A DNA stretch of 64,000 nt from Escherichia coli (GCF_003334385.1 NZ_QOWN01000004.1), one strand, 5' to 3'. Counted from the first letter of the stretch, positions 13,597 through 14,244 are shown. The notes: a model not told the origin generated them from the letters alone. Made by a program: numbers and translations.

Positions 13597-14244
13597 ATGT
13601 ATCTTGATACCAGCAACGTACAGAGCCTGAAGGAAAAGCTGCTGTTATGCGCGGTTAATGAATTTGCCGAATATGGTTATGAAGGGGCCAGGGTCGATAA
13701 TATTGTTAAGGCTGCGGGGTGTAGTAAACAGACGGTTTATCATCACTTTGGTAATAAAGAAAATTTATTTATTGAAGTACTGGAATATACCTGGAACGAT
13801 ATTCGACAAAAAGAAAAGGCCCTTGATTTCTCAGATCTTCCGCCACAAAAAGCCATTGAGAAAATTATTGATTTTACATGGGATTATTATATTGCTAATC
13901 CCTGGTTTTTAAAAATTGTGCATAGTGAAAATCAAAGTAAAGGTGTGCATTATGCAAAATCACAGCGTCTCTTAGAAATTAACCATGCGCACTTGCAGTT
14001 AATGGAATCCTTATTGGATGAAGGGAAGAAACACAATATTTTTAAGCCAGATATCGACCCATTGCAGGTGAATATTAATATTGCTGCGCTTGGCGGATAT
14101 TATTTGATCAACCAGCATACGCTTGGCCTGGTTTATCATATCAGTATGGTTTCCCCCCAGGCACTGGAAGCCAGACGTAAGGTCATCAAAGAGACAATCC
14201 TTAGCTGGCTTTTGGTTGACCCTTCATCTACCGCGCACGAATAA
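13597..14244 (+). CDS. TetR/AcrR-family transcriptional regulator, divergent from the accessory operon
   Basis: N-terminal helix-turn-helix ([43 protein letters not shown]); ATG at 13597 with GGGGA RBS (the track start at 13573 is TTG); 3' end overlaps the 3' end of ytfB by 17 bp. Confidence 0.85.

Follow-up and report, generated by a model that had tools for sequence, protein, structure and literature searches.

The convergent overlap of a TetR-family gene with ytfB and the variable rplI–ytfB interval of Escherichia coli

In a stretch of 64,000 nucleotides of Escherichia coli DNA (GCF_003334385.1, NZ_QOWN01000004.1; hereafter the window, with positions counted from its first letter), the core gene ytfB and a gene for a TetR-family regulator run toward each other and share their last bases, while the interval between the regulator and the rplI terminator is filled by a transporter module and a set of catabolic enzyme genes. 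The question raised by this arrangement is whether the shared bases mark the right edge of an island inserted into the chromosome, as had been proposed in an earlier note on this DNA, or whether they are a normal feature of the locus. The explanation that we favor, and to which as a whole we assign a probability of roughly 85%, is that the overlap is an ordinary and long-conserved junction of two convergent genes, ytfB and the TetR-family gene, and that the rplI–ytfB interval is a multi-allelic locus and not a K-12-like backbone into which an island has been inserted.

The junction of the TetR-family gene and ytfB

The reported 17-bp convergent 3′ overlap is exact. According to both the ORF list and the raw sequence, the TetR-family frame on the plus strand ends with a TAA at 14242-14244 and ytfB on the minus strand with a TAG at 14228-14230 (cta on the plus strand), and the two ORFs share, tail to tail, the bases 14228-14244. 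The TetR/AcrR-family gene (13597-14244, plus strand) encodes 215 aa from the RefSeq start, an ATG at 13597, whereas ytfB (14228-14866, minus strand; 639 bp, 212 aa) encodes an OapA/LysM-like cell-division protein and forms the core right flank. The identity of ytfB is supported by its position between rplI and fklB and by the domains PF08525 and PF04225 (OapA_N and LysM_OapA) recorded for its homologues; NCBIfam OapA matches the YtfB C-terminal domain, and the RefSeq name is 'cell division protein YtfB'. Thirteen NCBIfam models of the TetR family match residues ~7-110 of the regulator (best E-value, 2.7e-12), as expected of a TetR-type HTH protein, and none of its NCBIfam matches reaches an equivalog cut-off. 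RefSeq names the gene a TetR/AcrR family regulator, and its locus and near-identity establish it as the orthologue of K-12 ytfA.

The RefSeq annotation of all major-allele E. coli loci fetched contains the same 17-bp overlap, and its sequence in the K-12, BL21, B2-type, E. albertii and L011 loci is identical to that in the window. The overlap is also 17 bp long in E. whittamii, Escherichia sp. E1V33 and Klebsiella spallanzanii, with substitutions, while in a minor E. coli allele described below the stop codons abut exactly (0 bp overlap) and in Entomohabitans the two genes are separated by a 15-bp gap. Past a conserved motif, SWLLV, the TetR frame of the window continues for only 8 codons before its stop, and this tail reads DPSSTAHE in the window, K-12 and E. 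albertii, DPSSTARG in E. whittamii, DPSSTARE in E1V33, TPGSLIGRE in Klebsiella (where the 17-bp overlap has a different sequence), NPARG in the minor E. coli allele and AK in Entomohabitans. The C-terminus of YtfB, in contrast, is FIRAR or FIRAQ followed directly by the stop codon in every lineage, with or without an adjoining TetR gene. Because this ending is present regardless of the TetR neighbor, the overlap left ytfB unaltered, and a remodelling of the ytfB C-terminus by the overlap was rejected as an explanation. The differences between the window and E. whittamii or E1V33 within the overlap are synonymous in ytfB (CGT to CGC, ATT to ATC), whereas the same substitutions are non-synonymous in TetR (H to R, E to G). 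We propose that the overlap is passive, that is, that the non-conserved C-terminal tail of TetR reads into ytfB until a stop codon occurs, and that selection within the shared bases would act on the ytfB frame only. Short tail-to-tail gene overlaps are common in compact bacterial genomes, and there is nothing special about the length of this one.

An alternative is that the overlap is a functional regulatory device in which transcriptional interference or antisense RNA couples the catabolic operon to the cell-division protein YtfB. No intrinsic terminator was detected on either strand in the region of the overlap, whether by consensus scan or by RNA folding of the 3′ regions, and the C/G ratio past the two stop codons is only faintly suggestive of Rho-utilisation sites. 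Because the junction lacks an intrinsic terminator, some antisense transcript overlap is likely: the TetR and ytfB transcripts must enter each other's coding regions and probably extend some way into them, presumably until Rho-dependent termination occurs. Also favorable to a regulatory role are the binding of RpoD holoenzyme between yjfZ and ytfA in K-12 (PMC3946193) and one screen in which CRISPRi against the ytfA pseudogene changed the expression of dapE and bssS (bioRxiv 10.64898/2025.12.20.695731). Against it, the arrangement varies by lineage (17-bp overlap, abutting stops with 0 bp, or a 15-bp gap), the promoter and 5′ part of TetR are gone from 41% of E. coli, IS609 or IS5 insertions interrupt the TetR gene in other E. 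coli, and the substitution pattern within the overlap indicates constraint on ytfB only. The overlap is thus not conserved as a device, and we consider a regulatory function unlikely. A specific form of it, in which bidirectional antisense run-through in intact-TetR strains ties the YtfB level to the regulatory state of the catabolic operon, we consider very unlikely; if it were true, the K-12-type deletion and the minor TetR-ytfB allele could be alternative solutions to this YtfB–operon coupling.

Breakpoints and alleles of the rplI–ytfB interval

The island reading of the earlier note supposes that E. coli acquired horizontally the ~9.8 kb between the rplI terminator and the stop codon of TetR, with the overlap as the right edge. 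When positions 13400-15000 were searched against 5426 complete E. coli genomes, the 3′ end of TetR together with ytfB was present in 5417 of them, and the whole query, hence the complete TetR gene, was covered in 3147. In the other matching genomes the alignment begins only at query position 443 (window 13842) or 738. Direct alignment places K-12-type DNA on window positions 1485-4402 and 13842-19001, and the part of TetR that K-12-type genomes retain, its final 402 nt (codons 83-215), is 96-100% identical in nucleotides and ends at the same stop. The K-12-lineage record ATCC 98082 has the order rplI, yjfZ, 402-nt TetR remnant, ytfB; RefSeq annotates the remnant there as 'TetR/AcrR, missing N-terminus' at locus positions 4002-4403 and ytfB at 4387-5025, again with an overlap of 17 bp. 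This K-12-type junction was found in 2228 of the 5426 genomes (41%). The breakpoint between presence and absence is therefore not at 14228-14244: it lies at 13841/13842, inside TetR at codon 83. Cluster-less E. coli break at 4402/4403 and at 13841/13842, and between these points contain yjfZ and the remains of the SDR gene instead of an empty site. The right-hand breakpoints seen in E. coli fall in the gene for the FAD-oxidoreductase or at TetR codon 83, and none falls at ytfB. Because K-12 keeps the 3′ end of TetR and the same 17 bp, the TetR gene is the intact form of ytfA and the overlap is common to nearly all E. coli; alignment to cluster-less genomes, the check that the earlier note had called for, thus identified the regulator as the complete counterpart of the K-12 ytfA remnant with an unchanged overlap, the outcome that the note itself had given as refuting its reading. 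An island boundary at the overlap does not exist in E. coli, K-12 included.

Insertion sequences were also seen within the regulator gene. In FORC_043, IS609 (tnpA and tnpB; locus record L002, 2310-3957) lies inside the TetR remnant and explains the class of matches that begins at query position 738; for the other strains of this class, O157:H7 isolates included, IS609 is presumed from the same partial-match pattern. In strain UID2404240040 an IS5 element splits an intact TetR gene.

The island reading gains some ground at the scale of the family. In Salmonella enterica and Citrobacter farmeri, neither of which has the cluster, the order is rplI-eamA-ytfB with a spacer of 49 bp and 80 bp, respectively, and between genera the cluster does end at ytfB. 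A low GC content of the TetR gene (39.5%) and the TRAP genes (43.7%), against 50-55% in the enzyme genes between them and in the core flanks, also fits an island and is compatible with a foreign origin of these genes at some earlier time, and the rplI terminator does mark a left edge. We scanned other species for the TetR gene by exact peptide words in one genome per species, a procedure by which orthologues can be missed. The orthologous proteins are 96% identical to the window's in E. whittamii, 94% in E. albertii, 93% in a further Escherichia lineage with the TRAP form, 89% in Klebsiella spallanzanii and 81% in Entomohabitans teleogrylli, E1V33 having a truncated form, and all of the orthologues found are flanked by this operon on one side and by ytfB on the other. 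The locus of K. spallanzanii and Entomohabitans reads rplI-eamA-(maoC-like)-MFS-oxidoreductase-CoA-transferase-hydratase-TIM-SDR / TetR-ytfB-fklB-cycA, and the cluster proteins are 76-91% identical to those of the window, compared with 88-90% for fklB and cycA and 59-65% for YtfB; over E. whittamii, E. albertii, K. spallanzanii and Entomohabitans together the range for the cluster proteins is 76-98%. The presence of the cluster at the same locus in three genera, with a divergence like that of the flanking core genes, argues against a recent acquisition in E. coli. Across the Enterobacteriaceae, the cluster either was inserted long ago between eamA and the 3′ end of ytfB or is an old resident with repeated losses, and the TetR/ytfB junction would be an edge only of such an ancient, inter-genus insertion. 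Since cluster-less E. coli still possess the final 402 nt of TetR with an identical overlap, and since 5417 of 5426 genomes have the junction, the island-edge reading is refuted for E. coli and is, in the form given in the earlier note, decidedly unlikely.

A source of the cluster outside the Enterobacteriaceae was sought among alphaproteobacterial homologues of the TetR protein (34-40% identity); these mostly lack the enzyme genes nearby, and of their neighborhoods only that in Albidovulum has three of them. One survey lists ytfA among the TetR-family genes and has it in every strain of E. albertii and E. fergusonii that was examined and in a part of the E. coli strains (PMC6790063), and its nature as a TetR-family remnant with a patchy distribution was already known from both annotation and publications. 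Searches for rplI with ytfB and for ytfA with ytfB returned nothing on the junction itself.

On the left, the boundary is sharp and lies, as previously suggested, just past the rplI terminator. The core left flank is rplI (3900-4349, plus strand, from its ORF and RefSeq name), the last gene of the rpsF-priB-rpsR-rplI operon, whose protein is 100% identical across the Escherichia loci. A terminator scan located its intrinsic terminator at 4371-4402 (assigned to neither strand), a 12-pair hairpin at 4371-4397 preceded by an A-run and followed by a T-run to 4402, and the symmetry of this element suggests that it is probably bidirectional. Every allele diverges right after GCGTTTTGCTTT (4402/4403), directly behind the terminator, and five continuations follow that sequence: TRAP, yjfZ, MFS, hipBA and the yjfZ-less sequence of E1V33. 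The stop of dctP at 4461 is 58 bp past the T-run and 63 bp past the stem, close to the ~55 bp originally estimated.

The lack of a tRNA gene, an integrase and flanking direct repeats was likewise borne out. ARAGORN found no tRNA in 1-20000, and no integrase or recombinase is encoded in 4403-14244, where all ORFs are for transporters, enzymes or the regulator; the RefSeq annotation of identical loci lists no integrase either. A search for direct or inverted repeats of at least 8 bases between the left junction and three right-hand candidates (the breakpoint within TetR, the overlap, and the oxidoreductase gene at its 3′ end) returned one shared 8-mer, about the chance level (~0.25 expected). 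No Rfam family was found near the junctions; the only match was the RpsF leader (RF02893, 110 bits) at 2828-2912, an expected and known element upstream of rpsF.

A second search, with the 9.5-kb interior of the cluster (4350-13850) as the query against the same 5426 genomes, resolved the alleles. The full TRAP-type cluster of the window is present in 1448 genomes. A second class covers 67% of the query, one MFS transporter gene replacing the three TRAP genes, and by subtraction comprises ~1700 genomes, with or without yjfZ or hipBA; the K-12-type deletion relic accounts for 2228 of 5426. Among the MFS-type loci fetched, that of the BL21 lineage reads rplI-MFS-...-TetR-ytfB and that of strain 20AR1039 rplI-yjfZ-MFS-enzymes-TetR-ytfB, while a third has a hipB/hipA-like pair between rplI and MFS. 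In this common MFS haplotype a hipB-like HTH gene and a hipA-family toxin gene, the latter frameshifted in the record, directly follow the rplI terminator (L005, 2902-4663).

Next to the transporter genes lies the gene for a 693-aa FAD-dependent oxidoreductase of the fumarate-reductase / L-aspartate-oxidase superfamily (7326-9407, minus strand). By sliding identity, TRAP and MFS alleles are 59-80% identical from ~7300 to ~7700 (BL21) or ~8080 (20AR1039) and mostly 96-100% identical beyond, so that the last 120-250 codons of the oxidoreductase gene move with the transporter module and the swap has a graded right edge. This graded identity supports homologous replacement over site-specific integration, and the transporters would have been exchanged when a diverged version of this operon recombined homologously with the resident one. 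The earlier suggestion of an old insertion or a homologous replacement, as opposed to site-specific integration, is upheld to the extent that the TRAP/MFS difference fades gradually within the oxidoreductase gene; its placement of the edge at the overlap is not. We also observed that the E. whittamii MFS transporter (L009, 2374-3648) is 99.5% identical in protein to that of BL21 (L004), and that the E. whittamii oxidoreductase is 88% identical to the TRAP-type copy of the window, a gap due in part to the TRAP/MFS split in the 3′ end of the gene. The near-identity of the transporters may reflect a recent between-species exchange of the transporter end of the locus.

The opposite end of the locus is also polymorphic. 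Over a block corresponding to 13385-14776, a minor TetR-ytfB allele has ~75-80% DNA identity to the major one, the TetR and YtfB proteins being 84% identical each, and its flanks are mostly 90-100% identical (locus records L006, 11150-12450, and L007). It occurs in 355 of the 5426 genomes at an identity of at least 95%, and about 36 look mosaic. The distance between the two alleles is about that between E. coli and Salmonella; no donor could be named among the lineages fetched, to all of which the minor allele has about equal DNA identity (71-79%), and its YtfB is closest to that of E. coli itself. Further downstream, strain 702/18 carries two extra hypothetical genes between cycA and ytfE (L006, 15150-17833), and Salmonella has two genes of similar size in this slot (L087, 1582-4124); the window has no insertion there (cycA 16014-17426, ytfE 17471-18133).

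The operon, its probable regulator and the proposed origin of the K-12 form

At the left end of the cluster of the window lies a complete TRAP transporter, its DctPQM set encoded together on the minus strand: dctP (4461-5432; NCBIfam TRAP_S1/dctP, 251 bits against a cut-off of 50), dctM (5485-6786; NCBIfam dctM, 458 bits against a cut-off of 268) and the small-subunit gene dctQ (6829-7329; a YiaM-like match). This module (4461-7329) is the part truly specific to the haplotype of the window; other E. coli have an MFS transporter in its place. Beyond the oxidoreductase gene, and also on the minus strand, follow genes for a fused family-I CoA-transferase (9404-10945), an enoyl-CoA hydratase of the crotonase family (10955-11737), a xylose-isomerase-like TIM-barrel protein (11741-12583) and an SDR (12593-13384). 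The genes in 9404-13384 are common to the TRAP and MFS types, are 91-100% identical to BL21 per 200-bp interval, and their orthologues in K. spallanzanii and Entomohabitans follow the same order. The operon, with either a TRAP or an MFS uptake module and the same five enzymes, is present in ~58% of complete E. coli genomes.

With regard to function, no operon protein reached an NCBIfam equivalog cut-off except in the generic SDR model, and the sequence matches in the PDB are uncharacterised structural-genomics entries or distant flavoproteins; DctP homologues in the PDB match at E-values down to 7e-71. The substrate of the operon is likely a carboxylate, the class of compounds that TRAP DctP proteins bind. 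Several of the closest DctP structures presumably bind hexuronates, which we treat as a lead only. The existence of two interchangeable transporter modules, TRAP and MFS, suggests a single carboxylate or sugar-acid substrate.

The SDR and TetR genes are divergent, with start codons 212 bp apart. An inverted-repeat search of the region between them identified a palindrome, GATCAACCA-N6-TGGTTGAT, at 13452-13474 (no strand assigned) as a candidate TetR operator; its perfect core, ATCAACCA-N6-TGGTTGAT, occupies 13453-13474, and a flanking G extends it to 13452. The palindrome with its flanking G is invariant in 9 lineages, Klebsiella and Entomohabitans included, within an SDR/TetR intergenic region whose mean column identity is 46%. 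The terminator scan also flags 13452-13474, as a weak minus-strand hairpin. Because of the invariant palindrome and the divergent arrangement, TetR is probably a local repressor of the adjoining operon and the palindrome its putative operator, at which it would repress the divergent catabolic genes (SDR, TIM-barrel protein, hydratase, CoA-transferase, FAD-oxidoreductase and transporter).

How the K-12 form may have arisen is indicated by its alignment with the MFS-type strain 20AR1039. The two are colinear through rplI, yjfZ and ~170 bp further, after which K-12 has the SDR relic and then TetR from codon 83. The relic is a 102-bp stretch surviving in K-12-type genomes that corresponds to 13194-13295 of the window (minus strand; L001, 3895-3996) at ~82% identity, and the K-12 and E1V33 copies of it share 85% identity. 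Escherichia sp. E1V33 agrees with K-12 in this SDR relic and in the TetR breakpoint and precisely lacks yjfZ; therefore, either the relic allele arose long ago or lineages have exchanged it, and yjfZ represents a separate indel. We propose that the K-12 type derives from the yjfZ+MFS form by two deletions, reaching from just past the MFS gene to TetR codon 82 and sparing 102 bp of the SDR gene. The contrast between this relic (~82% identical to the intact genes) and the adjacent TetR remnant (96-100%) needs an extra assumption, namely that the segment of the TetR 3′ end and ytfB, homologous in all haplotypes, would have been kept uniform by recombination, and the isolated SDR relic would not. 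From a few loci taken without a strain phylogeny, we infer an order of events in which the K-12 form results from these deletions and the TRAP type is derived from an ancestral MFS type. The reverse polarity, with the truncated K-12 form ancestral and the intact TetR gene and operon inserted into it, could draw on the frequency of the K-12-type junction (2228 genomes) and its occurrence in the separate lineage E1V33, but it has a close to negligible probability, since such an insertion would have had to restore exactly both the full TetR frame and the remainder of the SDR gene on either side of a 102-bp piece, and the intact TetR-ytfB adjacency is found in E. albertii, E. whittamii, Klebsiella and Entomohabitans.

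The gene yjfZ (DUF2686; L001, 2936-3730) is present in 2539 of the 5426 complete E. coli genomes and absent from the haplotype of the window and from BL21. It was proposed in 2024 as a conserved E. coli/Shigella signature gene for water monitoring by qPCR (PMC11057252). This proposed universal E. coli marker sits in a variable locus and is missing in more than half of the complete genomes.

The main value of these results lies in a correction: read against K-12, the overlap looks like an island edge, whereas it belongs to a gene that is intact here and half lost in K-12; the edges that truly vary are at other positions. K-12 ytfA is best understood as what deletion has left of the regulator of an operon still present in 58% of complete E. 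coli genomes. To those who specialise in the plasticity of the E. coli genome, none of these conclusions would be surprising.

Comparison with known systems

The closest known counterpart of the TetR gene is E. coli K-12 ytfA (b4205), a pseudogene or TetR fragment beside ytfB, which is the same gene with the same stop and the same 17-bp overlap. Unlike K-12 ytfA, the gene of the window is of full length (215 aa), has its own promoter region and lies beside the operon that it presumably controls. It resembles the local TetR-family repressors AcrR, BetI, RutR and AcuR in being divergent from its operon, with a palindrome in the shared promoter region; it differs from these in that none of its matches is at equivalog level and in that its role as a repressor is a prediction from sequence. 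As in the short convergent overlaps of other compact bacterial genomes, the stops of TetR and ytfB lie inside each other's last codons, here over 17 bp; no feature distinguishes this overlap from the others, and its length differs among lineages. Finally, the rplI–ytfB locus shares with classical tRNA-integrated islands, which are inserted by site-specific recombinases, a content that varies between strains and, in part, an atypical GC content. Unlike those islands it has no tRNA gene, integrase or flanking repeats, and its variation consists of deletion and homologous replacement of modules at a fixed chromosomal locus.
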